Shown: positions 304 to 62,841 of the stretch, piece by piece
Numbering within the stretch: position 1 is the stretch's first letter
How the letters are laid out: every line of letters begins with the position of its first letter
Source of the DNA: Candidatus Forterrea multitransposorum CG_2015-17_Forterrea_25_41
GTDB taxonomy: Archaea; Iainarchaeota; Iainarchaeia; Iainarchaeales; CSSED10-239
Length of the DNA stretch: 64,000 nt
NCBI GenBank assembly: GCA_009392915.1
Contig: CP045477.1
Coordinates: 608,001 to 672,000, forward strand
Direction: 5' to 3'
Notes under the pieces: model-generated
Databases searched by the model: none
What the model was told of the DNA's origin: nothing
The model's input: only the letters and a program-made list of their open reading frames with translations
Translations under genes and position numbers: made by a program

Positions 304-2331
304 ATGGTTTTTCCTTCTTTAAAAGTTACAAAAGAACTTACAGATAAGATAAGTAAACTTGAAGAAATAGAAAATACTAGAAGTGAAGATGAAGAAAAAA
401 TCATAAATCAATTTTTTAAAAAAGAAATATCTCAAAAACAATTAATTTCTCTATTAAGAGAGAAAAAAATACAATCTATTTCTAAAAAAACAGATATTAA
501 GGCAGTACATGCACTTGTAGATTATAATAAAACTTTAGCAAAGTTATCAGAAAATCTACAACTACAAAAAATACCTATTTATAGTATTGAAAATAGATCT
601 ACGTTTAAAAGAATTTTAAAAAACTTATTTACAAAGAAAACTAAAAAAATAAAACCAAAGAAAGTAGAAGTTAAAAAAGATATTGATACAAAAAAAGAAA
701 CTGAAATTAAAAAAGACACAAAAATTGAAACCAAAAAAGAAAAGAAAGATACAAATATCTTTGATAGAATATTTAAGAAAAGAGAAGCATTAGTTACAAA
801 AGTTGAAGAAAAACATGAAATCAAACCAACTTTTGAACCTCCAAAAGAACTTTTACCTGAAAACTATCAAGTCTTAATACATGGTTTTGCATATGCCTTT
901 ATTAGAGAATCAGAAAATGAAAGAATATATGTTGTTGCAGAACCAGAACTTACAGAAGAAGAAGAAAGAATTTTAAAAGAAACTAGAGAATCACTTATTA
1001 ATAAAATATCACTTGCAGATCTTACTGATGAGTCTCAAATGTATACTTTAGTTGAAAAAATATTTACAAGAAATAAAATAAAACTTGAAAAAGAACAAAA
1101 AGATAAAATTGTTTATTATATTATAAGACAAGTAAGTGGACTTGATAAAATAGAACCACTTATGCATGATCCATTAATTGAAGATATTGAGTGTGATGGT
1201 ATAGGGATACCAATCTTCATTGTTCATAGAAAATATGGACACATTGTAACAAATATTGTTCTAGATACAGAAAATGAACTACAACAATTTATTATAAAAA
1301 TGGCACACCTTTGTAAAAGTTATGTTTCATATGCATCTCCACTTTTAGATGCAATTTTACCAGATGGATCTCGTGTAAATGCAACATTAACTTCAAATGT
1401 TTCAACAAGAGGACCAACTTTTACAATCAGAAAGTTCCCTCAAAAACCATTAACAACAATTGATTTAATTAACTCTGAAACAATCACTCCAGAAATTGTA
1501 TCATATCTTTGGACATTACTTGAATTTAAAAAGAACATGATATTAATTGGACCAACAGCTGGTGGAAAAACAACACTTCTAAATGTAATTTCTTCATTTA
1601 TACCAGAAGCACAAAGAGTAGTATCAATTGAAGATACAAGAGAAATTAATCTTTTACTTAACAACTGGATTCCACAGATTACAAGAAGTGGTTTTGGACC
1701 TCCTGATCAAAATGGAAAAAGATATGGTGAAGTTAACATGAATGATCTTTTAAAAGAATCATTCAGACAAAGACCAGATTACTTAATTATCGGTGAAGTA
1801 AGAGGAGAAGAAATGGCTTTAATGTTCCAGGGTATGGCATCTGGACACTGTTCTCTATCAACAGTACACTCTAAAAGTGTAGAAGCATTAATTACAAGAA
1901 TTACAACTCCTCCAATCTCTTTAGATCCTTCACTTATAACAAGTCTTGATATTGTAATTGTAACAGGATTTACTGGTGTTGGAGAAGAAGGAAAGAGAGA
2001 AATTAAAGAAATTGATGAAATTAAAGGTTATAATAGTAAAGATAAGAAAGTAGAATATAATCCAATATATAAATCAATAGATAAATTTAAAGAAAAAAGT
2101 GCAACTTCACAAAGTGATCTTTTCCATAAAGAAACAGCTTTAGTATACAATAGTGATGTTTTAAAAGAAATATGTACAGAACATAATATTTCTAAAAAGA
2201 AAATGACAGATATAATAATGGCAAGAACTAAATTTATTGAAGCACTTACTAAAAACCCACCAAAAGATTACGTAGAATTTAATAAACTACTTAAAAATTA
2301 TAAAAGAAAAGAAGATTTTACTGAAAATTAA
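304..2331 (+). CDS. flaI: Type IV pilus/archaellum assembly ATPase (FlaI/ArlI, GspE/PilB family) with a long lysine-rich N-terminal extension
   Basis: Walker A GPTAGGKTTLLN is followed by the secretion-NTPase motifs (SIEDTREINL, LIIGEVRGEE). The first ~200 aa are low-complexity and K/E-rich. Confidence 0.8.
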   Translation: MVFPSLKVTKELTDKISKLEEIENTRSEDEEKIINQFFKKEISQKQLISLLREKKIQSISKKTDIKAVHALVDYNKTLAKLSENLQLQKIPIYSIENRSTFKRILKNLFTKKTKKIKPKKVEVKKDIDTKKETEIKKDTKIETKKEKKDTNIFDRIFKKREALVTKVEEKHEIKPTFEPPKELLPENYQVLIHGFAYAFIRESENERIYVVAEPELTEEEERILKETRESLINKISLADLTDESQMYTLVEKIFTRNKIKLEKEQKDKIVYYIIRQVSGLDKIEPLMHDPLIEDIECDGIGIPIFIVHRKYGHIVTNIVLDTENELQQFIIKMAHLCKSYVSYASPLLDAILPDGSRVNATLTSNVSTRGPTFTIRKFPQKPLTTIDLINSETITPEIVSYLWTLLEFKKNMILIGPTAGGKTTLLNVISSFIPEAQRVVSIEDTREINLLLNNWIPQITRSGFGPPDQNGKRYGEVNMNDLLKESFRQRPDYLIIGEVRGEEMALMFQGMASGHCSLSTVHSKSVEALITRITTPPISLDPSLITSLDIVIVTGFTGVGEEGKREIKEIDEIKGYNSKDKKVEYNPIYKSIDKFKEKSATSQSDLFHKETALVYNSDVLKEICTEHNISKKKMTDIIMARTKFIEALTKNPPKDYVEFNKLLKNYKRKEDFTEN

Positions 2332-3651: not shown

Positions 3652-4629
3652 TTATTCATCTCTAATAGCTCCATTATTAAAAACTTTATAGAAAATAAAA
3701 ACATATAAAAGACCTATAAGAGAAAAGGCAATTGAAAAATATATCTGCGCCATTGAAGCAATTAAAATACCAATGAAAAGAGCAAAGAATTTATTTACAA
3801 CAACCATTAAAGGAATACTTGAAATTGAATCTAAAACTTGATTTTTAATATCATTAGTATTTAAATTTGCATAAAGTCTATCAAAATCTTCAGTACTTGT
3901 TTTAGCACTACTGTTTTCTTTAATATTTTCTATAAAGTCAATATAGTTATAGACTACAGGATCTTTTAATTTTTGTAACTCTTTATATTCTTCTGAATCT
4001 ATTATAAAATTTACAACTGAAGAAGTACTTGCTTTACTTATACTGTAAGAAGTACCAAGCCAATTACCAATATCATCACCTACAAAAACTTCAACCATAC
4101 CCATTTGCATTTTTTGAGAATAACTTGCTTGATTTGGTAAGATTACAAGAAAGATTACTAAAAATAAAGTTAAAGATAAAAGAATACTTATCTTTGAATT
4201 TGCATAGTTTGAAAGAGAGTTAAGATGATCTCTTTCTTTAAATTTATTATATGTTAGAATAGATAAAAGTAAATGAGAAGCTAAATAAAATAAAACAAAT
4301 AACCAAAAATTTGCAGAAAATTTAAATATTAAAAAAGAAATTATAAAACCTAAAGTTATTCCTAAAAAAACTTCTAAAAGATCTAAATTTTTTTCTTTTC
4401 TAACAGATAAAGCAATACAGATTGCAGAAGTTATTGGAAATAATAAAAGTAAAAATAAAAAATCTAATGTTAAAAAAGTATTAACAATATCAGATAAATT
4501 AAAAACAATTAAAGAAGTTAGAGAAATACCTGATGCTTTATAAAAAAACATCCACATTATTATTGAAAAAGCAATTAAAAATATTTTTAAAATACCTTTT
4601 TTTTCAAAAACTTCAGTATAACTCATCAA
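3652..4629 (-). CDS. Polytopic integral membrane protein (function unknown)
   Basis: Multiple hydrophobic helices spread over 325 aa. No recognisable catalytic motif. Confidence 0.4.
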   Translation of the reverse strand: MMSYTEVFEKKGILKIFLIAFSIIMWMFFYKASGISLTSLIVFNLSDIVNTFLTLDFLFLLLLFPITSAICIALSVRKEKNLDLLEVFLGITLGFIISFLIFKFSANFWLFVLFYLASHLLLSILTYNKFKERDHLNSLSNYANSKISILLSLTLFLVIFLVILPNQASYSQKMQMGMVEVFVGDDIGNWLGTSYSISKASTSSVVNFIIDSEEYKELQKLKDPVVYNYIDFIENIKENSSAKTSTEDFDRLYANLNTNDIKNQVLDSISSIPLMVVVNKFFALFIGILIASMAQIYFSIAFSLIGLLYVFIFYKVFNNGAIRDE

Positions 4630-11907: not shown

Positions 11908-12558
11908 TTAAAGAATACTTGAAAAGAAATACATAATAACAAATAAAATAATTGTCATAACAATATTTCCTAAAACTTCAAAATTAAACATTTTTTTTAC
12001 AAAATGATAAAACATTAAAATATAATAAACTAATAAAGCTATTGAAAAAATAAATAATAAAATTAATCCAACAACAGCTCCTCCACCTAAATTAGGAAGC
12101 ATACCTGAATTATAGATGTAATCTGGATTTTGAATTGCCATTGACATAAAAGGAATTACTTTTGGCATAAAAATTAAAACAATTGCAAAAACAACTAATA
12201 TTGCAATAATAGAAACTATTCTAAAAGCCGCAAGAGAAGAAAGTATGTTTTTTAGTTCTCCACCTTTTAGATTATTCTTACCTTTTACAAAATAAAGTAT
12301 TAAATAAATAATTATTCCTAAAATAAACCAACTAAAAACAAAAGTTATAATTAATCTAATTGTAAAATAGGATAATACATTTGGTGACTTTAACAAAAAT
12401 AAAACTAAAGTTTCAATAAAAATTGAAATGAAAATTACAATCGCAGCAGTAGAAACATCTACTTTTTCATAAAAATGATTAATTAGTTTTTTTGGATTAA
12501 AACTAACAATTTCTTTTTCATCTTCAATTAAGTTTTTCTTTTTAAGTCTAGCAACCAT
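11908..12558 (-). CDS. Integral membrane protein (unknown function)
   Basis: At least 5 hydrophobic helices. No catalytic Asp motifs. Confidence 0.4.
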   Translation of the reverse strand: MVARLKKKNLIEDEKEIVSFNPKKLINHFYEKVDVSTAAIVIFISIFIETLVLFLLKSPNVLSYFTIRLIITFVFSWFILGIIIYLILYFVKGKNNLKGGELKNILSSLAAFRIVSIIAILVVFAIVLIFMPKVIPFMSMAIQNPDYIYNSGMLPNLGGGAVVGLILLFIFSIALLVYYILMFYHFVKKMFNFEVLGNIVMTIILFVIMYFFSSIL

Positions 12559-16054: not shown

Positions 16055-16738
16055 TTAAACATACCCTTCAATGTATGCTGTTTTTGTTTTTATAAAAAGC
16101 TTTTTGGATAATTCAGGAAAAATTAAACCTTTTTTTAATTTACACACAAATTCAAAAAGTCCAATAGCAGGATAAGGAAGCAAATTATAATGAATATTTT
16201 CAAAAATAAATCCATTTAGAAAAACAGATAGCTCAGAAAGGTAATATTCAGATAATTTTTCTAACTCATTTAAAGTAAAAGATTTATCTGAAAAAAGATT
16301 TTTAATATAATTTAAAACATAATTTCTAAAAAGAATATTAGTATTAAATTCATCAAAAATTAAACACCTGTTTTTTTTATAATCAAAAGAATTAATTACA
16401 TCTTTCCAACGAACAATAATAATTTTTTTTTGAATATCTTGCAGATATTTTGCAATGATTTTTTCACACAATCTTTTTACTTGAGATCCTTTCTTAAAAG
16501 CAGTTTTTTTAGCAGAATCTTTTGAAAGATTAAAAAATATTTCATCATTAATAGCTTGGATTTCATCTGCAATTAAAATAGCTACTTTTTCGTTTGTATT
16601 TTCTAAAGCCCAATCTAAATATCTTTTAATATGTTCTTCAGAAAAATAATTATTTCTTACACTTATTCCAATATAAATATTAAATTTTTTATTTTTAACT
16701 TCAGTTTCATTTGTTAAAAAATAATTTTTAATAATCAT
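16055..16738 (-). CDS. Cyclodipeptide synthase (CDPS)-like protein (class-I aaRS-like fold); tentative
   Basis: IYIGISVRNNYFS resembles the CDPS catalytic-Ser pocket GIS-x-G/R-N-x-YFS. The Y-x3-E (YYLSE) with a Tyr 20 residues after the Glu matches the recalled spacing of AlbC Y178/E182/Y202. 227 aa. Confidence 0.45.
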   Translation of the reverse strand: MIIKNYFLTNETEVKNKKFNIYIGISVRNNYFSEEHIKRYLDWALENTNEKVAILIADEIQAINDEIFFNLSKDSAKKTAFKKGSQVKRLCEKIIAKYLQDIQKKIIIVRWKDVINSFDYKKNRCLIFDEFNTNILFRNYVLNYIKNLFSDKSFTLNELEKLSEYYLSELSVFLNGFIFENIHYNLLPYPAIGLFEFVCKLKKGLIFPELSKKLFIKTKTAYIEGYV

Positions 16739-20859: not shown

Positions 20860-21891
20860 TTAAAAGATCCTATCAAAACCATTTATTTCAAAAACATAAA
20901 TTAATAAATTATAAGAATTAGCATAATTTGCATACCCTAAAAAAGAAAAAAGAGAAGAATTAAAATTAATTAAAGAAATTTTTTTAGAATTTAATAAAAG
21001 ATTATTAAGTTTTTGTCTTTTTATAAATCTCTTAACATTTGATTTTCTTAGTTTTACTTTAGTTGGGTAAATTTTATAACCTAAAAAATCAACCCCTTTA
21101 TCTACTAAATTAATATAAGTTTTGTTTTTAGGAATTGTAAGTAACAAATTATTTTTTAAAAATAATTTAATTTTTCTTCTGAAAATACTTAACTCTTGTT
21201 TAGAATTTGAAAATATTAAAAAATCATCAACATACCTATAATAGTGTTTGATTTTTAAAGTATGCTTAATATATTGATCAAGCTCATTTAAATAGATATT
21301 TGCAAAAAGTTGAGAAGTTAAATTACCAATAGGAATTCCTTTTTTATTATTTAAAAACGAAAAAGAATAACTATCTATTATTTTATATATTATAACCAAT
21401 AATTGCTTGTCTTTAATTCTTTTTTTTATAATATATTTTAAAACCTCTTTTTCAATAGAAGGAAAATATTTTTTAACGTCTTGTTTTAAGTAATATTTAG
21501 GAGATTTTTTAGATTGAACTAATTTTTTTATTTCTAAAAAACCTTTAAAAGTACCTTTTCCTTTTCTACATGCAAAAGAATTATTTATAAAAGTTTTATC
21601 AAAGATAGGCTCAATAATATTTATAATTGCATGTTGAACAACGACATCTCTAAAACAAGGAGCACTAATAATTCTTTCTTTAGGTTCATATACCTTAAAA
21701 TTTCTATATGGAGAAAAATTAAAATTACCAGAAATTAATTCTTCTTGTATTAAAAATAATTCTTTTTCAAGATTTTGAGTAAATTTTAAAATATATTTCT
21801 TATTAGGATTTGATTTTCTGGCACGTTTATATGCATTATAAATGTTTTTAAAAGAAGTAAATTCTTCCCAAAGATTATTATATGATTTCAT
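20860..21891 (-). CDS. DGR-type reverse transcriptase
   Basis: RT motifs including catalytic YVDD (YRYVDDFLIFS) and the DGR-specific motif-4 signature IGNLTSQ. Lies directly downstream of the template repeat. Confidence 0.88.
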   Translation of the reverse strand: MKSYNNLWEEFTSFKNIYNAYKRARKSNPNKKYILKFTQNLEKELFLIQEELISGNFNFSPYRNFKVYEPKERIISAPCFRDVVVQHAIINIIEPIFDKTFINNSFACRKGKGTFKGFLEIKKLVQSKKSPKYYLKQDVKKYFPSIEKEVLKYIIKKRIKDKQLLVIIYKIIDSYSFSFLNNKKGIPIGNLTSQLFANIYLNELDQYIKHTLKIKHYYRYVDDFLIFSNSKQELSIFRRKIKLFLKNNLLLTIPKNKTYINLVDKGVDFLGYKIYPTKVKLRKSNVKRFIKRQKLNNLLLNSKKISLINFNSSLFSFLGYANYANSYNLLIYVFEINGFDRIF

Positions 21892-22124
21892 TTTTTATAG
21901 AACCTATTAAAAATTAAAAGTTATTACAGATTTCTTTAATCTAATAAAATTAAAATACTAAATGTAATAACTTATTTTTATATTCGATTTTTAAAACATA
22001 AAAACAAAAATGTTTTTATGGCATACCTTATATGCAATCAGGAAACATTTTACAGATGTAGTTTTTAGAATATACACTTTGCATATTTTAAAAAATAAAA
22101 ATAAATATACAAACTCTGATAAAA

Positions 22125-22146
22125 CCTTATTTCTTTAAAAATAAGG
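22125..22146 (-). other. Stem-loop abutting the 3' end of the DGR template repeat
   Basis: ccttattt-ctttaaa-aataagg gives a perfect 8-bp inverted repeat, 2 nt from the TR boundary. Confidence 0.4.
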
Positions 22147-22148
22147 AG

Positions 22149-22269
22149 AAACTACTGAACACAGCGCAGGCCGATGTTGTTGTTCCGGTTCCCAGGAGTA
22201 TTGTTCAAGTTCAAGTTCAAGACCCCTGCATTAGTTCCATTGTTCCAGTTACCACCGCGCAGGAAAGAA
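22149..22269 (-). repeat. DGR template repeat (TR)
   Basis: 121-nt GC-rich repeat, 101/121 identical to the 3' end of the target gene. On the gene strand every mismatch is an A in this copy, including repeated AAC codons. Not inside an ORF. Confidence 0.88.
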
Positions 22270-22345: not shown

Positions 22346-22675
22346 TTATAAATTATGCTTTAAAAGCCCCCCAATTAATTTACCTAAATCATTTAGTTTT
22401 TTAGAAATAACTTCATATTTTTTAAAAGAAATAATTTTTAGATCAAAAGAGAGCCTCACATATATTTTTAAAAGTTCTAAATCAGTATCAATTTGATTTA
22501 AAGTATTAATTTTATGTTTTGAAAAAAGAATAGTATTAGATAATAAAGAAATAGTAGTTTTTTTCAAATCTTCTCCTAAAATATATTTGTCAGATTTAGG
22601 AAATTTTTTAATTTCAGGATAAATATAAAGTAAAAAGTTATATGTTTCTTTATATAACTTTAAATCAAATAACAT
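22346..22675 (-). CDS. avd: Avd (DGR accessory variability determinant); four-helix-bundle family
   Basis: 109 aa basic protein. KLYKETYNFLLYIYPEIKKFPKSDKYILGEDL...LNDLGKLIGGLLKH matches the Avd/23S-IVS four-helix-bundle pattern. Located between target gene and TR. Confidence 0.7.
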   Translation of the reverse strand: MLFDLKLYKETYNFLLYIYPEIKKFPKSDKYILGEDLKKTTISLLSNTILFSKHKINTLNQIDTDLELLKIYVRLSFDLKIISFKKYEVISKKLNDLGKLIGGLLKHNL

Positions 22676-22685
22676 ATTATAAACA

Positions 22686-23093
22686 CTATTTTTTATTTTC
22701 TTCTATTTTTTTTATAAGTCCATTAAAATATTTAATTTTTTCTTCAAATTGATTATAAAAAAAAAGAATTTTATCTTTAGATAAATCTTTATTAATTTCA
22801 CTTAATATAAGTAAATTTGATTGAGTTGTAGAAACACAATCTCTTGAATAAGAATAAAGTAATGATTTTTCATTAGAATGATATTTATTATATCCTTTTG
22901 ATAAAAAAGAAAGAATATTTATTAAATTTGAAATAGTTTCTTGAAAAATAAAATTATCATTTATAGATGATTTATTTTCTTCTAAAAATTTATAAGTATT
23001 AATAACTAAAGGAAAGAGTTCTTTGTAAACCCCAAAATTTAAAATTCCTCTTTCTATATTTACTAAACTCATAACAACCATATTTTTGTCCAA
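22686..23093 (-). CDS. Hypothetical protein inside the DGR cassette (possible second accessory factor)
   Basis: 135 aa ORF, co-oriented, between the target gene and avd. No recognisable motif. Confidence 0.35.
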   Translation of the reverse strand: MDKNMVVMSLVNIERGILNFGVYKELFPLVINTYKFLEENKSSINDNFIFQETISNLINILSFLSKGYNKYHSNEKSLLYSYSRDCVSTTQSNLLILSEINKDLSKDKILFFYNQFEEKIKYFNGLIKKIEENKK

Positions 23094-23267: not shown

Positions 23268-23309
23268 TCGCGACGTTACCCGTCTTACCGTCTTGCCGTC
23301 TCACCCGTC
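23268..23309 (-). repeat. GC-rich tandem direct repeats 3' of the VR
   Basis: Four imperfect tandem copies of (a/g)(c)ccgtct(t/c) (gene strand GACGGNNA) in an otherwise AT-rich intergenic region, ~34 nt downstream of the target-gene stop. Confidence 0.4.
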
Positions 23310-23342: not shown

Positions 23343-23463
23343 AAACTACTGAACACAGCGCAGGCCGACGACGCTGCCCCGGCCCCCAGGAGTAAAGTTC
23401 AAGCGCAAGCCCAAGACCCCCGCATTAGTTCCACTGCCCCAGCCACCACCGCGCAGGAAAGAA
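23343..23463 (-). repeat. DGR variable repeat (VR) at the 3' end of the target gene
   Basis: 121-nt copy of the TR with 20 substitutions, all at TR-adenine positions (A to G/C/T on the gene strand). Spans the final 39 codons plus stop of ORF 23346-24707. Confidence 0.88.
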
Positions 23464-24707
23464 TATACAGTAGTAGAAGTATCTCCAAAATCACTATAAG
23501 TGTAAATTCTACCAACACCATTATCTGCTGCATTATAATTATTACTTGTAAGTAAAAATAAATCTTTATACTCTAAAGTGGTATTACCTAAATTATCAGA
23601 AGAAATGTATTGGGCTTCTCCACCACCTTTTGAATAATCAAAATAATCAAAACCAGTAGTAAAGTTACTATCATCAGCATTGTTAAAACCATCAGGTTGG
23701 TCTTTTCTTTGGATAGTGTCACTTGTCCATTGCCAAACATTACCAGCTAAGTCCCAAATTACTTCACCGTTTGTTAAAGTTAAGGTTCTTTTTGTAGTGC
23801 CAGAAAGTTCATCAAAACCTTCCATAGCACCAGAAGAAGAAGAATTACCACGTGGAAGATAACCTTCTCCAACAACTCCAGTTGACCAGTTTGAAGGTAC
23901 TTGTTCAATGTTTCTTGCAATGGTCATCCATTCGTCATTTGTTATTAAATGTCCACCTACTGCAGCACAAGCTGCAATAGCTTCGGTTTGGGAAATTCTT
24001 GCTATTGGAGAACCTTCTGGAGTTGATACTAAAGTGCCTGGAGTAGGACATAATTCATAACTATAAGTATTATAGGTTAAAGAACCAGTATTACAATCTG
24101 GATAATCAGCTACAAGGTTTCCTTTACCATCTCCATTTGCATCCATTTTCATTTCATATTTTGAAACACAAAAACCACCACGCTCATTCATGGTTCCATA
24201 TAAATGGTTTCCTGGAACTGGAACATAGCCTTCTGGACAAGAAAGAGGAGTTTTTACGGTTTGAAAAAGATCAGGTTTAGTTATCATTTGAGAATTGTCT
24301 AAATATAAAACTAAATCTAAAGAGTCACCTAAAATACCATGATCAAGAGTAGCAGATTGATTGGAAAGAATAGTGACAGGAGGTTCTAAAGGATTAATGT
24401 TTGAATTGCCTAATAAACTATAACCGGTAATGGTAATAGAAGTATAAGGAGAACCATAAGGGGGTTTATACTCTAGAAGAGAACGACCATTGATAGAAGA
24501 TTTAATATTTAAATAAAAGCCAGTTTCTGATTCTGTATAAACTTCAATACTTGAAGCTTTAGAAAAAGAATCATTGGTAAAGCCTTTACCCCAAGAAAGA
24601 ATAATACCAATAATAGCAACAGAGACAACTATTAAAAGAATGGTGGCTATCAAAGGAGAAATACCTTTTTGAAATCTAAAACGCTGAAAAATATATTTGA
24701 AAAACAT
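23346..24707 (-). CDS. DGR target protein: pilin-like surface protein with C-terminal FGE-sulfatase/C-type-lectin-fold variable domain
   Basis: N-terminus FQKG|ISPLIATILLIVVSVAIIG is an archaeal class III (prepilin) signal. C-terminal domain has the FGE hallmark AGNVWQWTSD and ends ...RGGGWGSGTNAGVLGLRLNFTPGGRGSVVGLRCVQ, which is encoded by the VR. Confidence 0.85.
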   Translation of the reverse strand: MFFKYIFQRFRFQKGISPLIATILLIVVSVAIIGIILSWGKGFTNDSFSKASSIEVYTESETGFYLNIKSSINGRSLLEYKPPYGSPYTSITITGYSLLGNSNINPLEPPVTILSNQSATLDHGILGDSLDLVLYLDNSQMITKPDLFQTVKTPLSCPEGYVPVPGNHLYGTMNERGGFCVSKYEMKMDANGDGKGNLVADYPDCNTGSLTYNTYSYELCPTPGTLVSTPEGSPIARISQTEAIAACAAVGGHLITNDEWMTIARNIEQVPSNWSTGVVGEGYLPRGNSSSSGAMEGFDELSGTTKRTLTLTNGEVIWDLAGNVWQWTSDTIQRKDQPDGFNNADDSNFTTGFDYFDYSKGGGEAQYISSDNLGNTTLEYKDLFLLTSNNYNAADNGVGRIYTYSDFGDTSTTVYSFLRGGGWGSGTNAGVLGLRLNFTPGGRGSVVGLRCVQ

Positions 24708-30531: not shown

Positions 30532-32322
30532 ATGGCAACAGAATATACAAGAATAGCAGTAATTGATAAAAATAAATGTCAACCAAAAGCATGTAACTAT
30601 CTATGCCACAGAGTTTGTCCTCCTGTTAAAATGGGAGAAGATGCAATCGAAGTTACAAATAGAGAAAACTGGACACCACCAGTAATTAATGAATCATTAT
30701 GTACTGGTTGTGGTATTTGTCCTCACAAATGTCCTTTCAATGCAATTACAATTATAAACACAGGAATTAAGTTTGGAGATCCAATACACCAATATGGTCA
30801 AAATAGTTTTAGAGTATATTCTCTTCCATCTGCTGAAAAAGGTTTTATTACTGGGCTTATTGGAATTAATGGTTCTGGAAAAACAACAAGTATAAACATC
30901 CTTTCAGGAAATTTAGTTCCTAACTTAGGAGCCTATGATGAAAAAGAAGACATAGATAAAGTAATTGAGTATTATAGAGGAAAAAACATCCAAAAGAATT
31001 TTATAGAAATTAAAGAAAAAAAATTATCTTTTGCATATAAAATACAGAAAGTTGAAGAAATTCCAAAAGTCTTTAAAAAAAGCATTAAAGAATTACTTGA
31101 AAATATTTCAAAAGATAAAGAATATTATGAAAAAATTATAAAAGAACTTGAAATTGAAAAACTTCTTTTAAAAACACCAACAGAGGTATCAGGTGGAGAA
31201 TTACAAAGAATAGCAATTGCTGCATGTCTTTTAAAAGATGCTCAAATTTATTTTTTTGATGAGTACACTACATTTTTAGATATTAAACAAAGATTTAAAA
31301 TTGCAAAAATATTAAGAGAGAAAATAAATGAAAATAATTCAATTATGTTAATTGAACATGATCTTGCAATCCTAGATTACATTAGTGATTTTGTACAAAT
31401 AATGTTTGGTAGGAAAAATGCATATGGACAATCTTCTAATAAAAAAACAACAAAAAAAGGAATTAATGAATTTTTAGAAGGTTTCTTAAAAGAAGAAAAC
31501 ATAAGAATTAGAAATTATAAAATAGAATTTAGCTCTGCAAAATATGCAACTGAAAAAAGAATAGAAACCACTCTTGCAAAATATCCTTCTTTTAAAAAAA
31601 CATTAGGAGAATTTAACCTAGAAGTTGAAGAAGGAGAAATTAAGAAAGGAGAAATAATTGGTGTTTTAGGACAAAATGCTATTGGAAAAACAACCTTTAT
31701 AAAAATTCTTGCAGGAGAAATCAAAGCAGATGATAAAGATCTAGATATTAAACTTAAAGTGTCTTATAAACCACAATATATCGATCTTAATGAAGATATT
31801 ACTGTTCAAGAATTATTTTTAAAAAAAGAAATAAATCAAGATATTTTTAATTCAGAGATTAGAAGACAACTTGATATTGATAGTATAATTGATCAAGAAA
31901 TAAATCAACTTTCTGGAGGAGAACTTCAAAAGGTTGCAATTGCATATACTCTTTCAAGAAATGCAGACATCTATCTTATTGATGAACCATCAGCATTTTT
32001 AGATGTTGAGCAAAGATTAATTGTTTCAAATGTTATTAAAAGCGTTATCTTAAAGACAGAAAAAAGTGCTTTAGTTGTAGATCATGATCTTTTATTTGTA
32101 GACTATATTTCAGATAGAGTTCTTTTATTCCAAGGAGAAGCCTCTGTTAAAGGTTTTGCAAACAAAATAGATAAAATAGAAGCTTCTTTTAATAAATTTT
32201 TAAAAGAACAAAACATGACTTTTAGACAAGATCCTGATACTAAAAGACCAAGAGCAAATAAACCAGACTCACAAAAAGATAAAGAACAAAGAAAAGATAA
32301 TAGTTATTATTATACTATTTAA
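30532..32322 (+). CDS. abcE1: ABCE1 / RNase L inhibitor-like ribosome recycling factor
   Basis: N-terminal 2x[4Fe-4S] ferredoxin domain (CQPKACNYLCHRVCPP; CTGCGICPHKCP) and two ABC cassettes (GINGSGKTT; LSGGELQ). Confidence 0.9.
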   Translation: MATEYTRIAVIDKNKCQPKACNYLCHRVCPPVKMGEDAIEVTNRENWTPPVINESLCTGCGICPHKCPFNAITIINTGIKFGDPIHQYGQNSFRVYSLPSAEKGFITGLIGINGSGKTTSINILSGNLVPNLGAYDEKEDIDKVIEYYRGKNIQKNFIEIKEKKLSFAYKIQKVEEIPKVFKKSIKELLENISKDKEYYEKIIKELEIEKLLLKTPTEVSGGELQRIAIAACLLKDAQIYFFDEYTTFLDIKQRFKIAKILREKINENNSIMLIEHDLAILDYISDFVQIMFGRKNAYGQSSNKKTTKKGINEFLEGFLKEENIRIRNYKIEFSSAKYATEKRIETTLAKYPSFKKTLGEFNLEVEEGEIKKGEIIGVLGQNAIGKTTFIKILAGEIKADDKDLDIKLKVSYKPQYIDLNEDITVQELFLKKEINQDIFNSEIRRQLDIDSIIDQEINQLSGGELQKVAIAYTLSRNADIYLIDEPSAFLDVEQRLIVSNVIKSVILKTEKSALVVDHDLLFVDYISDRVLLFQGEASVKGFANKIDKIEASFNKFLKEQNMTFRQDPDTKRPRANKPDSQKDKEQRKDNSYYYTI

Positions 32323-32819
32323 GGTCTTCTTTGGAAAATAATTTCTGCAGAAATATAATTATCTACAATTGAAACATTACAATCAGATAAATCACCAGAA
32401 ACATCTATTTCTTTATCAAAATAAACTTCTTTTGAAATTTCAGAAGTAATATTTGAAGATTGATTATTACATAATAAATCTAATTTTCCAGAATATCTGT
32501 CTCCTGAAAGAGCAGAATTTTCAATTGTAATATCACAATCAAGGCTATTTTTATTTGTTTCATTTAACATAGATGAAAGATAATTATTAACTCTTGAATC
32601 ATAATTATTTTTTGTTGCAATTGAACAACTATTAAAAGTTTCATCCAGCAAAGAATCTACAACAATATTATCTGCTGATAAGGCTAAAAGAGAAACATGA
32701 TTATAAGAATTTGTTATAACTTCTGTGTTATCAGAAATAATTATTGAAGGAGTTAAAAAAACTATAACAATTAATAAAATAATTCCACTAAACAAACCTT
32801 TTTCCATCAAACCCCTCAC
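32319..32819 (-). CDS. Archaeal type IV pilin-like protein (class III signal peptide)
   Basis: N-terminus MEKG|LFSGIILLIVIVFL. Fourth gene of a co-oriented cluster. Confidence 0.5.
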   Translation of the reverse strand: MRGLMEKGLFSGIILLIVIVFLTPSIIISDNTEVITNSYNHVSLLALSADNIVVDSLLDETFNSCSIATKNNYDSRVNNYLSSMLNETNKNSLDCDITIENSALSGDRYSGKLDLLCNNQSSNITSEISKEVYFDKEIDVSGDLSDCNVSIVDNYISAEIIFQRRP

Positions 32820-33090
32820 AATAAACTTTAGTTTCTAAATCATTATAACCATTATCAGTTGAAGTAAAATCATAATAAAAATATTCAGTACACCAGTAAT
32901 ACTCAGCTAGACTTGTAACTTCTCCTTCTCCTGAATTAAACTCATTGTAGTTAAGTGAATTTAAAATTACTTGCTTATCTGTATTAACTGACCTATAAAC
33001 AACAAAAGTTGTAAGTGTTAAAAACAAAATAAATATCATTACATAATGAAGAGTTGTAATTGTTAAAATATATCCTTTATTTTGTTTCAT
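32788..33090 (-). CDS. Archaeal type IV pilin-like protein (class III signal peptide)
   Basis: N-terminus QNKG|YILTITTLHYVMIFILFL. Confidence 0.45.
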   Translation of the reverse strand: MKQNKGYILTITTLHYVMIFILFLTLTTFVVYRSVNTDKQVILNSLNYNEFNSGEGEVTSLAEYYWCTEYFYYDFTSTDNGYNDLETKVYCEGFDGKRFV

Positions 33091-33600
33091 TTATCTCCAC
33101 ACCTTTAAATTTAGTTCTTGTTTAGTATCTAAAATATTATCATTACCAGATAAACTATCAATATACCTTTTTTTATTAATTGCAAAGTTTGGTGTAATTG
33201 AAACATTAAAATCTATAGAATAATAATTATCAATTGATGGATCTAAAACATCAGTACATTCATTTGTAGTAAAAGCATAACTTGTAAGAGAACATTTATA
33301 GTTTGTAGGAATCCCTAGATTGTTTTTTGAAATATTTGAATTTTCAGTAAGGCATGCAGGAATATGATATCTATTATGAGAATCAAAAGCATAACAATTA
33401 ATATATGGATTATTAACTATATTTTTAAAAGCCATTTTTCCAACATTGTTTAATTGAGAATTAATATTATCTGTTGTTGTAGAATAAACTTTTGATTCAA
33501 CAATATTTACTAAAAGGAAAGAAACAAGTATGATTAGAACAACTGAAAAAAGAATATCTAAAACCATAATTTGTCCTTTTTTATTTTTAATCATAATCAA
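33091..33600 (-). CDS. Archaeal type IV pilin-like protein (class III signal peptide)
   Basis: N-terminus KNKKG|QIMVLDILFSVVLIILV. Confidence 0.55.
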   Translation of the reverse strand: MIMIKNKKGQIMVLDILFSVVLIILVSFLLVNIVESKVYSTTTDNINSQLNNVGKMAFKNIVNNPYINCYAFDSHNRYHIPACLTENSNISKNNLGIPTNYKCSLTSYAFTTNECTDVLDPSIDNYYSIDFNVSITPNFAINKKRYIDSLSGNDNILDTKQELNLKVWR

Positions 33601-34070
33601 TCACAAACAATATCTCCAGAACTATTATAACAAGTTACTATTTCTCCACAGTATTTCTCAAAATCACTAAAAGAAAATTTAGTGTTGTTTAAAGACATGT
33701 TTTGATCGTAATAAATAACAGAATCATCATACTCTACAATCATATTTAAAAAACCAGGGTTAATAATAAACTTACATTCTACATTCTTAGAAGGAATCGT
33801 AATGTTTGGAATTTTAAAAGTATTTTCAAAACTTACATTAAAATTATTATCAACAACATCAGTTACAAATATTTCTTGAGACTTTAAAAAACTATAAAGA
33901 GAATCTGAAATTTGAGATTGTTGTTCTTTTATTTTATATAACTCAATTGTTTCAACAGTATTGTTTGAAAGATCATTAAATACAGTTATAAATATTATTA
34001 GAAAGATAATAATGATTACAACTTCAATTGAAACTTGAGCTTTTTTATTTCTATTCATAAATATTAACAA
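33597..34070 (-). CDS. Archaeal type IV pilin-like protein (class III signal peptide, Glu at +5)
   Basis: N-terminus NRNKKA|QVSIEVVIIIIFLII. Confidence 0.5.
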   Translation of the reverse strand: MLIFMNRNKKAQVSIEVVIIIIFLIIFITVFNDLSNNTVETIELYKIKEQQSQISDSLYSFLKSQEIFVTDVVDNNFNVSFENTFKIPNITIPSKNVECKFIINPGFLNMIVEYDDSVIYYDQNMSLNNTKFSFSDFEKYCGEIVTCYNSSGDIVCD

Positions 34071-48047: not shown

Positions 48048-49640
48048 TTAATTTCCTGTGTTGTTAGAAGATAAATTTGTGTATGCTTCTTCTAATTCCT
48101 GAATTTCATCTTGATAATTTAAAGATACAAGATCATATACTGTTTGAACTCCTAAAACAGGATTTAATTCAAATAATTTTCTATTAACATCTAAAGAAAT
48201 ATTTTGATCTTCAGAACATTTTAAGAAAAGTATAGGGAATATTGAAAAAACATCATTTGTAACTAAAGGTTTAATTACAAGATTTATTTTATCAGAATAT
48301 AAATATTCTTCATAAAATTCATCTGTTAAAGTTTCTTTTTCAAATTGATTACAATAAGGACAATCATAATCTGTGAAAAGAACAACTGAAACAGGTGCAT
48401 CTTCTGTACCAATTAATTTATCTGATTCTTTAATAATTGAAGAATAATCTAATATTTTATAGATACCATCAATACCACTACCTAAAGCAAGTTGAGGGAA
48501 AACATCTTCTCTTAAGATATATCCATTGTTAACAGTTTCTTCTTTAAAGATTAAATTAAAAATATCTTTATTTTCAGAACCATTAAAATCAACGGAATTA
48601 ACATCTCCTAAAACATACATTGCAGGTAATGTATTTGAACCAATAGTTTCTAAAATTTCAATTCCTAATTCAGAATCGTATTGTACATATTCAACATCTA
48701 AATCAAATAAAACAGAGAAAATAGAATTTACATTTTCAAGTAATAATTCAGAAGTTTTTAAATATTCAATAAACTCTGTATTCTTTTCAGAAATCATTTC
48801 ATTTTCTTTATCGTAAATATAATACATTTTTAATGAATCTTGAGTATATGAAAATGAAGAATTATCATAATTTAGATCTAATGACTCTACGTTTTCTACA
48901 GAATCAATAAACTCTGTAAAAACATTATAATCTTTAAAACCAGATAAATTATATCCATTTACATAGATTGTTGGAGTTGACATTACATATAATTCTTGTG
49001 CTTGTAAGAAATCATTTTGTATTACACTTACTTTTTCATAATCATATAGATTAGAATCTTTTAAAAGATAATTATTTTCTAAAAGACAAGCATCCATTTC
49101 TTCAGAATTAATATTTAAATCTGAATAACTTTCTTCTAAAATTTCTTTTTGATAAGTTCTCATATCAGTTAAAAGAGTTAAAGTTAAGTTTAATGATTTT
49201 TCTTCAAATTCTTCTGCACTCATAGTAACAGTAAAAGTATTTGAATCAATTGTATTTGTGTCAGTTCCATTTAAAGGATCATCATTTGTTTGAACAGGAG
49301 TTATAGGAATTAAAAATGCTAAAGCAATAATTAAAACTATTAAACCAGCTAAAACACCAATAATTACATAATCTCTTTTTTTAGTAGATCTCTTTTTTGA
49401 AACATCTTTATGTTTTTCGTGAGAATGAACTTCAACTTTTGGTTCGTGTTTTTCAATTTCAACTTTTTTAGGTGTTGAAACTTTTTTTGAACTCATCTTC
49501 TTTGGCATTGCCTTTTTTGAAGTAGTTGATTTTTTTTTTGCTTTGTTTTTATTAACATCTAAAACAGTATTTGTATCTTCAAAAACAACTTGTACTTTTT
49601 TTGGAGATTTAGCTTTAGATTTTTTTTTAGTTTTAGCCAA
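48048..49640 (-). CDS. Membrane-anchored extracytoplasmic protein with C-terminal thioredoxin-like CPYC domain
   Basis: K-rich N-terminus, one TM helix (VIIGVLAGLIVLIIALAFLI), and C-terminal FTDYDCPYCNQFEKE thiol-disulfide oxidoreductase motif. Confidence 0.5.
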   Translation of the reverse strand: MAKTKKKSKAKSPKKVQVVFEDTNTVLDVNKNKAKKKSTTSKKAMPKKMSSKKVSTPKKVEIEKHEPKVEVHSHEKHKDVSKKRSTKKRDYVIIGVLAGLIVLIIALAFLIPITPVQTNDDPLNGTDTNTIDSNTFTVTMSAEEFEEKSLNLTLTLLTDMRTYQKEILEESYSDLNINSEEMDACLLENNYLLKDSNLYDYEKVSVIQNDFLQAQELYVMSTPTIYVNGYNLSGFKDYNVFTEFIDSVENVESLDLNYDNSSFSYTQDSLKMYYIYDKENEMISEKNTEFIEYLKTSELLLENVNSIFSVLFDLDVEYVQYDSELGIEILETIGSNTLPAMYVLGDVNSVDFNGSENKDIFNLIFKEETVNNGYILREDVFPQLALGSGIDGIYKILDYSSIIKESDKLIGTEDAPVSVVLFTDYDCPYCNQFEKETLTDEFYEEYLYSDKINLVIKPLVTNDVFSIFPILFLKCSEDQNISLDVNRKLFELNPVLGVQTVYDLVSLNYQDEIQELEEAYTNLSSNNTGN

Positions 49641-62271: not shown

Positions 62272-62841
62272 ATGAAATTAAAATATTTATTTATAATTAT
62301 GGTGCTTGTAACCATTTTTTCAAACACAGTCTTTTCAGAAGATGTAAATGTTGATATTAATCAGAATGTAATAATTGATATAAACCAAGAAACAAAAATA
62401 AACGTTTATTTCTTTGGAACTTCAACTTGCCCTTACTGTGCTCAGGAAAAAGAATTTTTCACAGAATATGTTAAAAATAATCCAGATGTAAGAGTTTATT
62501 ATTTTGAACTTGATACTCAAAGAAATAATTCAAAACTATTACTTGAATTTTCAAAAGCTTTTCAAGAAAGAAGCACAAGTGTGCCTATAACTTTCATTTC
62601 AGAGAAAGTATGGATTGGCTTTTCTGAAAGTATACAAGGACAAATGGAAACAATAATTAATAATTGTAGAGAAAACACTTGTAAGGATTCTTATACACTT
62701 CTTGAAAATCAAGAAGAATTTAGAGAATACTTAACTAATGACAAGTATGTTAAATATCTTGGAGAAGAAATTAAAAAAGAGAAAACAGACAAAATTGGTT
62801 TTTTTGAAAGAATAGTTACTTTCTTTAAAAATATATTTTAA
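62272..62841 (+). CDS. Secreted thioredoxin/glutaredoxin-like protein (CPYC)
   Basis: Signal peptide followed by VYFFGTSTCPYCAQEKEFF thioredoxin-fold motif. Paralog of the N-terminal domain of the next gene. Confidence 0.6.
   Translation: MKLKYLFIIMVLVTIFSNTVFSEDVNVDINQNVIIDINQETKINVYFFGTSTCPYCAQEKEFFTEYVKNNPDVRVYYFELDTQRNNSKLLLEFSKAFQERSTSVPITFISEKVWIGFSESIQGQMETIINNCRENTCKDSYTLLENQEEFREYLTNDKYVKYLGEEIKKEKTDKIGFFERIVTFFKNIF

Follow-up and report, generated by a model that had tools for sequence, protein, structure and literature searches.

A putative modular archaeal type IV pilin with a lectin-fold head diversified by a retroelement

The closest functional precedent for the gene described here is provided by the type V pilus tip adhesins of Bacteroides (bioRxiv 10.1101/2024.11.15.621889), in which a C-type-lectin-fold (CLec) head on a pilin-type carrier is rewritten by a diversity-generating retroelement (DGR). 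The same combination was found for a DGR target gene on the minus strand of a 64,000-nucleotide stretch of contig CP045477.1 from Candidatus Forterrea multitransposorum (positions 608,001 to 672,000, hereafter the window). Bacteroides type V pili rely on lipoprotein sorting and strand exchange, whereas our target is predicted to combine an archaeal type IV pilin module with a head of the formylglycine-generating enzyme (FGE) type.

Three DGR variable proteins share the FGE-type CLec fold of the target head, namely TaqVP (5vf4) of a Thermus aquaticus prophage, the Treponema denticola lipoprotein TvpA (2y3c) and Mtd (1yu0) at the tip of a Bordetella phage tail fibre; in contrast to the target, they carry neither a type IV pilin module nor an archaeal class III signal peptide. 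Cellular DGRs with CLec-fold variable proteins have been described for AvpA of Nanoarchaeota and for other targets in DPANN archaea (PMC4372165, PMC5006420, PMC8144416), yet AvpA consists of one small non-FGE CLec domain, whereas the target has a clear export and anchor module. According to the account cited in PMC5758913, also the surface lipoprotein LdtA of Legionella is a cellular DGR target with a C-terminal variable repeat (VR), which is exported and displayed with its VR exposed. In that account, however, its host is a diderm bacterium, its route is of the lipobox/Tat type and ends in an outer-membrane anchor, and its CLec domain is DUF1566-type. A small pilin module, a short linker and a bulky binding module are also found in Streptococcus sanguinis PilB (vWA) and PilC (lectin), whose binding modules are predicted to be located at the pilus tip (PMC8179133, PMC9934059). 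These are bacterial prepilins (cleaved before FTLIE in G-FTLIE, N-methylated) for which no link to DGRs has been made, and the globular part of the archaeal module is not homologous to theirs. Finally, the solved archaeal pilins of Pyrobaculum calidifontis (8fk7), S. acidocaldarius (Aap, 8q30), P. arsenaticum (6w8u) and Ignicoccus (Iho670, 5kyh) show a class III leader, a hydrophobic N-terminal helix and a beta-sandwich like the target and match it by both sequence profile and fold, but they are single-module filament-body subunits of ~130-300 aa, with neither CLec heads nor DGR targets among them.

DPANN archaea and the bacterial candidate phyla radiation (CPR) are unusually rich in DGRs, yet reviews and surveys describe their targets as largely uncharacterized. 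Roux et al. 2021 found archaeal-clade DGR targets typically devoid of recognizable transmembrane or other conserved domains and left their surface status open, and Paul and Eren 2022 stated that most DPANN/CPR DGR targets are uncharacterized. The searchable literature, a scope without the main DPANN/CPR DGR survey (Paul et al. 2017, PMC5436926), yielded no account of an archaeal DGR target fused to a pilin; an earlier mention in that survey is possible. At this locus the carrier of a DGR variable protein is of a new kind. An export route, a predicted processing site (between G15 and I16) and a candidate display organelle can now be specified for a target family that is widespread, giving DPANN DGR targets a testable cell-surface context.

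Taken together, the target probably is an archaeal type IV pilin made of two modules, the second being an adhesin head diversified by the DGR. Its precursor would be inserted in the membrane, where its basic leader of 15 residues would be cut off behind G15 by a class III signal peptidase (PibD/FlaK/EppA type). The processed protein would start with I16, and its pilin module, a helix followed by an Ig-like beta-sandwich, would be handled by the type-IV-filament machinery. A short linker, confidently modelled, joins this module to a bulky head of ~300 aa, and the target would most likely be placed at the pilus tip or act as a sparse subunit of a pilus or a short pseudopilus. We argue for such a location in analogy to PilB, in which the bulky module sits on a short loop and can be accommodated at the tip alone. 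In silico, the head is an FGE-subtype C-type-lectin fold devoid of the FGE catalytic cysteines, with the last 38 codons encoding its ligand-binding face. Reverse transcriptase (RT) and Avd would copy the RNA of the template repeat (TR) into cDNA, with random bases opposite adenines, and this cDNA would replace the VR. In this way the cell would probably obtain a pilus-borne adhesin with ~10^16 possible binding sites, which could be reprogrammed toward host cells, particles or other surfaces by a genome-reduced, Iainarchaeota-like DPANN archaeon of presumably episymbiotic lifestyle.

The retroelement and the diversified head

On the minus strand, the cassette consists of the target gene, orf135, avd, the TR, a 257-nt spacer and the RT gene, and its RT/Avd/TR order is canonical (Table 1). 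Four hallmarks of a DGR were found in silico: TR/VR mismatches restricted to adenines, an adjacent DGR-type RT, an Avd and a VR at the C terminus of a CLec-fold protein. TR and VR are 121-nt direct repeats with 20 mismatches, 20/20 of them at TR adenines (16 A>G, 3 A>T, 1 A>C), for which the hypergeometric chance is 2.4e-15. The 21-mer common to their 3' ends occurs exactly twice in the window versus 0 expected occurrences. An initial annotation of this DNA had let the VR encode the last 39 residues of the protein; the repeat instead comprises 38 codons (S416-Q453), the stop codon and 3 nt, and variable codons are limited to 422-447. The TR encodes F-L-R-G-G-N-W-N-N-G-T-N-A-G-V-L-N-L-N-L-N-N-T-P-G-N-R-N-N-N-I-G-L-R-C-V-Q. 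With its 12 AAY codons plus ACT, ACT and ATC, it allows 8.3e15 possible protein variants, stop codons being impossible.

The Avd scored above the cut-offs of both matching families (NF033474, 90.8 bits versus 80; bAvd, 76.9 versus 40). Homologues of orf135 with 32-98% identity occupy the same position in the related loci L002, L005, L007, L010 and L082-84; its best family match was a weak four-helix-bundle one (E 0.02), and a second Avd was ruled out as there was no BLASTP similarity to Avd. The gene looks like a lineage-specific DGR accessory gene. Among relatives with 75-81% RT identity, high conservation was seen for the TR-to-RT spacer (e.g. AAAAACTACATCTGTAAAATGTTTCCTGATTGCATA), which points to a structured stretch within the DGR RNA. 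Just downstream of the VR, a hairpin is often found in DGR targets. At this place the target features a GC-rich element of AGACGG repeats, for which the predicted fold was not significant (z -1.74); the element is kept in L002, and L005 and L010 have clear hairpins at that position.

The footprint of diversification was read from 13 close homologues, in which changes saturate the 16 codons whose first or second position is a templated adenine. In contrast, the scaffold residues F417, L418, R419, G420, G421, W423, A429-L432, L434, L436, P440, R443 and G448-V452 never change. Close homologues differ at 11-15 of the 16 adenine-templated codons versus 3-21% of residues elsewhere, and for one of them (P0124) these values are 12/16 versus 3.4% of sites. 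Each of four relatives with 40-88% identity (L002, L005, L007, L010) comes with an RT, an Avd, an orf135 homologue and an adenine-specific TR/VR pair of its own. In the lineage of the target the cassette has clearly been at work, and it may still be active. A second cassette (L082-L084) comprises an 80%-identical target (P0005), orf128, an Avd and a 338-aa RT, with a DDE transposase and a HicAB toxin-antitoxin pair on its flanks. These flanks suggest that the cassette can be mobile, and a single genome may hold both P0005 and the target of the window, as the longest contig recorded for either protein has 839,632 bp.

An AlphaFold2 model of the target was built from 65 homologues (pLDDT 89.3, pTM 0.84). 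Foldseek gave the DGR variable protein TaqVP as its best PDB match (E 2.8e-9), followed by FGEs and Mtd, and Pfam FGE-sulfatase (PF03781) matched residues 229-351 with 37.1 bits versus a cut-off of 23.3 bits. The FGE-type motif AGNVWQWTSD corresponds to residues 321-330, with GNVWQW at 322-327. Model, Foldseek and Pfam thus agree with the C-terminal FGE/CLec fold proposed at the outset, but its supposed size of ~200 aa has to be extended to the ~300 aa (155-453) seen in the model. In TaqVP, nine variable residues are solvent exposed and make up the binding site, and W349 is invariant (PMC6328139). In the HMMER alignment, eight variable positions of the target (422, 425, 428, 435, 438, 442, 444, 446) coincide with TaqVP variable residues, and W423 coincides with the invariant W349. 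With 8/9 exposed TaqVP variable residues matched, this alignment would place the variable residues of the target on the solvent-exposed ligand face, an outcome in favour of the earlier proposal.

The pilin module and its family

Target residues 1-148 comprise a leader, the motif K-[G/A/S]-ISPLIATILL with predicted cleavage before ISPLIATILL, a long helix and a beta-sandwich. The protein starts with MFFKYIFQRFRFQKGISPLIATILLIVVSVAIIGIILSWGK, in which the predicted cleavage site separates MFFKYIFQRFRFQKG from ISPLIATILLIVVSVAIIGIILSWGK, and ends with ...FLRGGGWGSGTNAGVLGLRLNFTPGGRGSVVGLRCVQ. In 65/65 full-length homologues we found, in register and behind leaders of variable length, the pattern [KR][GAS], cleavage site, [ILV][SET][PAS]LIA, followed by ~21 hydrophobic residues. 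For class III signals, a rule modelled on FlaFind was run over 106 six-frame open reading frames (ORFs) of at least 60 aa (416 starts); it matched only the target and three ORFs at 32319-34070. Together with the conserved motif, this bears out the class III signal that the initial annotation had read from the N terminus. The ORF itself exists as claimed, and its start codon indeed lies upstream of the hydrophobic segment, with leader and helix conserved at the protein level.

Furthermore, a profile of residues 1-152 matched almost exclusively archaeal type IV pilins in the PDB, namely 8fk7 (6e-7) and 8rey (2e-4), then 9myg, 8gi2, 8fj5, 8fjs and Iho670. The mature 8rey chain (8rey_M) begins with VSPIIATILL..., its residue 1 being aligned with I16 of the target. 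Mature 8rey thus starts on the +1 residue of the target, which supports cleavage after G15. By fold, helix and beta-sandwich match whole pilin subunits, and residues 1-148 are a whole pilin module, beyond a mere signal peptide. Several homologues have been named 'flagellin-like protein' by JGI.

When a profile of the carrier module was compared with 1.8 billion representative proteins, the module was found in 1423 clusters at E<1e-3 and in 212 at E<1e-10. It lies at or within ~90 residues of the N terminus in all 150 matches listed, in proteins of 56-1134 aa. The C-terminal modules of ten long members were NHL repeats, GLUG motifs, CHB_HEX_C_1/Fn3_assoc, Lcl_C (DUF1566-type CLec) or FGE domains, and forms of 140-156 aa look like stand-alone pilins. 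A second homologue search with residues 1-152 yielded only 9 short proteins and revealed no stand-alone pilin in the genome of the target. JGI contig Ga0100381_1000002 (663,621 bp) holds the ATPase gene of the window and three consecutive pilin-module genes (L085 3515-8288); the target is also recorded on a JGI contig of 663,621 bp. These tandem genes (494, 445/449 and 617 aa) have the near-identical start ...KRKAISPLIATILLVVVA.AIIGIVLSWGKGFTNTTLS and then continue into different heads, the middle one being an FGE-like paralogue (P0040) with no DGR nearby. One N terminus is combined with many different heads and therefore behaves as a carrier module. In the sense of Raynaud et al. 2021 the proteins correspond to modular type IV pilins, although the IPR012902 signature of the original definition is bacterial and inapplicable here. 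The carrier module heads hundreds of DPANN proteins with other C-terminal modules and may define a large, undescribed group of modular archaeal pilins. The target family likewise has hundreds of homologues, mostly in DPANN-like metagenome-assembled genomes (MAGs).

A bacterial counterpart was seen in 18/66 related loci, in which an FGE-type head stands behind a bacterial prepilin N terminus (KGFTLLEILLVIA...); most of them belong to Patescibacteria. In a Saccharibacteria MAG (L015 5605-8767), a bacterial type IV prepilin (N_methyl 2e-9, above cut-off) is fused to a homologous FGE-type head. This locus has its own Avd, RT and TR/VR pair, with 13/15 mismatches on TR adenines, and is a convergent bacterial version of the pilin-head-DGR design. 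The pilin-FGE architecture IPR012902-IPR005532 is listed 8 times without comment in Dataset S1 of Raynaud et al. (PMC8179133), and the rare target domains named in a 2024 DGR survey include a 'G-type pilin'. There is evidence that Saccharibacteria attach as episymbionts by means of type IV pili (PMC9894109). The present locus connects with this pilus-mediated attachment and parallels the DGR-diversified type V tips of Bacteroides. Conceivable, if somewhat less likely than not, is the wider reading that the head of a type IV pilus subunit is hypermutated by DGRs in DPANN archaea and, by convergence, in CPR bacteria, with the pilus as a reprogrammable organelle by which genome-reduced episymbionts recognize hosts or surfaces and the archaeal form residing in the undescribed modular pilin family.

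Possible filament display and present activity

Several observations speak against a pilus-borne, diversifying adhesin. Curated pilin HMMs stayed below their cut-offs for the target (PF07790, 15.7/25.2 bits; TIGR02537, 15.4/20), with E-values of 0.028 for Pilin_N, 0.0096 for TIGR02537 and 5e-5 for the UpsA N terminus, and PF07790 (Pilin_N) reached E<0.01 in only 15/65 homologues. In the machinery search, 36 window or flanking ORFs were compared with Pfam and NCBIfam, and hydrophobic segments were counted in 65 ORFs of at least 90 aa; neither a prepilin peptidase nor a T2SSF-type platform protein was found in the 64-kb window and 10 kb upstream of the ATPase gene, and no prepilin peptidase was recognized in L080 either. 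The target lies outside any pilus operon, with housekeeping genes as neighbours. Moreover, at least 20 contigs carry the same protein with the same VR, and V446L, in a templated codon, is the sole change in the commonest variant; there is therefore no sign of rapid ongoing diversification.

The last point would be explained if the DGR was intact but now silent or nearly so, the VR being an effectively fixed allele, which would be compatible with any display model. We regard this as somewhat unlikely. The contigs with the identical VR come from several sources and the main variant is changed at a single adenine-templated codon, but RT, Avd and TR are intact, 12/12 AAY codons are preserved, and in strains with 3-10% divergence elsewhere, 12-13 of the 16 templated codons are changed. 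That a cassette can decay is seen in two Iainarchaeum-like relatives (L003 2630-2930, L004 5664-5962), in which the target stop is directly followed by a homologue of the TR-to-RT spacer and then the RT, with orf135, avd and a separate TR absent; a search for the TR in both loci found none. This layout fits a deletion via recombination between the 3' ends of VR and TR, which would freeze the VR and disable the DGR.

Alternatively, and as the main competing reading, the same protein and DGR might work without a filament. After class III processing, the target could remain anchored by its helix or enter a short bindosome-like assembly and serve as a surface receptor. Sugar-binding proteins of Sulfolobus carry class III signal peptides in a comparable manner. 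The position outside a pilus operon would agree with this, as would the bulky head on a short linker. No major pilin of the target's type was identified in the window, and the window ATPase also matches the bindosome BasE model (2e-59). The initial annotation had called this ATPase FlaI-like; it is a FlaI/T2SSE-family protein and a candidate assembly motor, but it remains below the archaellum FlaI cut-off (323 versus 550 bits). Small ORFs with pilin-like N termini lie just upstream of it, outside the window, and together with the ATPase they count in favour of the pilin reading. On the other hand, residues 1-148 of the target form a whole pilin module like those of filament-forming subunits, and this module is reused for many heads and exists in stand-alone, pilin-sized forms. 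We hence consider a filament-free receptor unlikely and favour display on a type IV pilus.

Four further small ORFs of the window had been called pilin-like. Three of them pass the FlaFind-like rule, whereas the fourth (32788-33090) is weaker and none reaches the Pfam threshold; the family search with all four gave only a faint Class_IIIsignal match (E 0.099). The KKGQ/KKAQ ORFs among them have an acidic residue near +5. The genome thus seems to encode two pilin classes. Beside the ATPase gene, at a distance of 1.3 kb, an ORF at 3652-4629 (-) encodes 325 aa with ~7 hydrophobic segments, a ~120-aa soluble insert and no family match, and might be a divergent platform protein. As candidates for a prepilin peptidase, this 7-TM ORF and a 5-TM ORF at 11908-12558 (weak Yip1 match) were discarded, since they are not peptidase-like.

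It is very unlikely that the target is a type II membrane protein unrelated to type IV filaments, with its N-terminal hydrophobic stretch as a plain Sec signal anchor or membrane-spanning helix. The sub-threshold HMM scores and the missing peptidase in the window would be compatible with such an anchor, but the K-[GAS]-ISPLIAT motif is in register throughout the homologues, the profile hits are almost all archaeal pilins with a mature pilin chain aligned from the +1 residue of the target, and the fold matches whole pilin subunits.

Least of all, the target can hardly be the enzyme of its public annotation (SUMF1/EgtB/PvdO family nonheme iron enzyme), a reading that the Pfam FGE-sulfatase match, weak EgtB and SenA matches and the NCBI name suggest, but that was rejected, as the catalytic Ser/Cys/Cys region (human C336, C341) corresponds to the hypervariable VR and holds no cysteine pair. 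The FGE catalytic equivalents lie on variable positions (PMC6328139) and are G422, S425 and N428 in the target, the only VR cysteine being that of the conserved GLRC. The head is therefore a binding scaffold rather than an enzyme, and the label given to this family is a systematic misannotation.

Genomic surroundings

Table 1. Coordinates of features of the target locus and of putative filament genes (window positions)
Feature	Position	Strand	Remarks
DGR target gene	23346..24707	-	453 aa + stop; identical to NCBI NCP71862.1
Class III signal peptide, basic leader	24663..24707	-	codons 1-15; ends K14-G15, predicted cleavage before I16
Hydrophobic N-terminal helix, pilin alpha-1 (ISPLIATILLIVVSVAIIGIILSWGK...)	24561..24662	-	codons 16-49; helix 18-49 in model
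Ig/Fn3-like beta-sandwich completing the pilin module	24264..24533	-	codons 59-148
FGE-subtype C-type-lectin-fold domain	23349..24245	-	codons 155-453; includes GNVWQW 322-327
Variable repeat (VR)	23343..23463	-	variable codons 422-447 = 23367-23444
GC-rich element, four AGACGG repeats	23269..23309	-	37 nt downstream of target stop
orf135	22686..23093	-	between target and avd; accessory ORF without family assignment
avd (accessory variability determinant)	22346..22675	-	NF033474 E 5.8e-26; bAvd 2e-21
Template repeat (TR)	22149..22269	-	12 AAY codons
TR-to-RT spacer	21892..22148	-	257 nt; strongly conserved in relatives
DGR reverse transcriptase	20860..21891	-	RVT_1 1.7e-23; IGNLTSQ at 188, YVDD at 220
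FlaI/PilB-family (T2SSE) ATPase	304..2331	+	E 3e-96; 21 kb from target; candidate assembly motor
Four small ORFs with other class III-like N termini	32319..34070	-	KKGQ/KKAQ/EKG/NKG + hydrophobic stretch; possibly another pilin type

The window has a G+C content of ~25%. Neighbours of the target encode PCNA, RFC, Lon, ABCE1, PheRS, aIF5A, FtsZ and PolB; as these are housekeeping genes, the locus is chromosomal and not viral. The exact target protein, named 'SUMF1/EgtB/PvdO family nonheme iron enzyme [archaeon]' by NCBI (NCP71862.1), recurs on numerous public contigs, for example in NCBI assembly GCA_009993835.1. Among named organisms, the nearest relatives are MAGs of Candidatus Iainarchaeum/'ainarchaeum', Iainarchaeota being a DPANN phylum (kingdom Nanobdellati).

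Two further groups of genes in the window are mentioned here. The proteins encoded at 48048-49640 (-) and 62272-62841 (+) have an N-proximal hydrophobic segment (residues ~88 and ~3, respectively) and thioredoxin, DsbA-like or glutaredoxin-like domains, and could oxidize cysteines of exported proteins, for example those of the six-cysteine target. Directly downstream of the two PheRS subunit genes, a cyclodipeptide synthase homologue is located at 16055-16738 (-) (Pfam CDPS 1e-10, above cut-off), which is unexpected for a genome-reduced DPANN archaeon.

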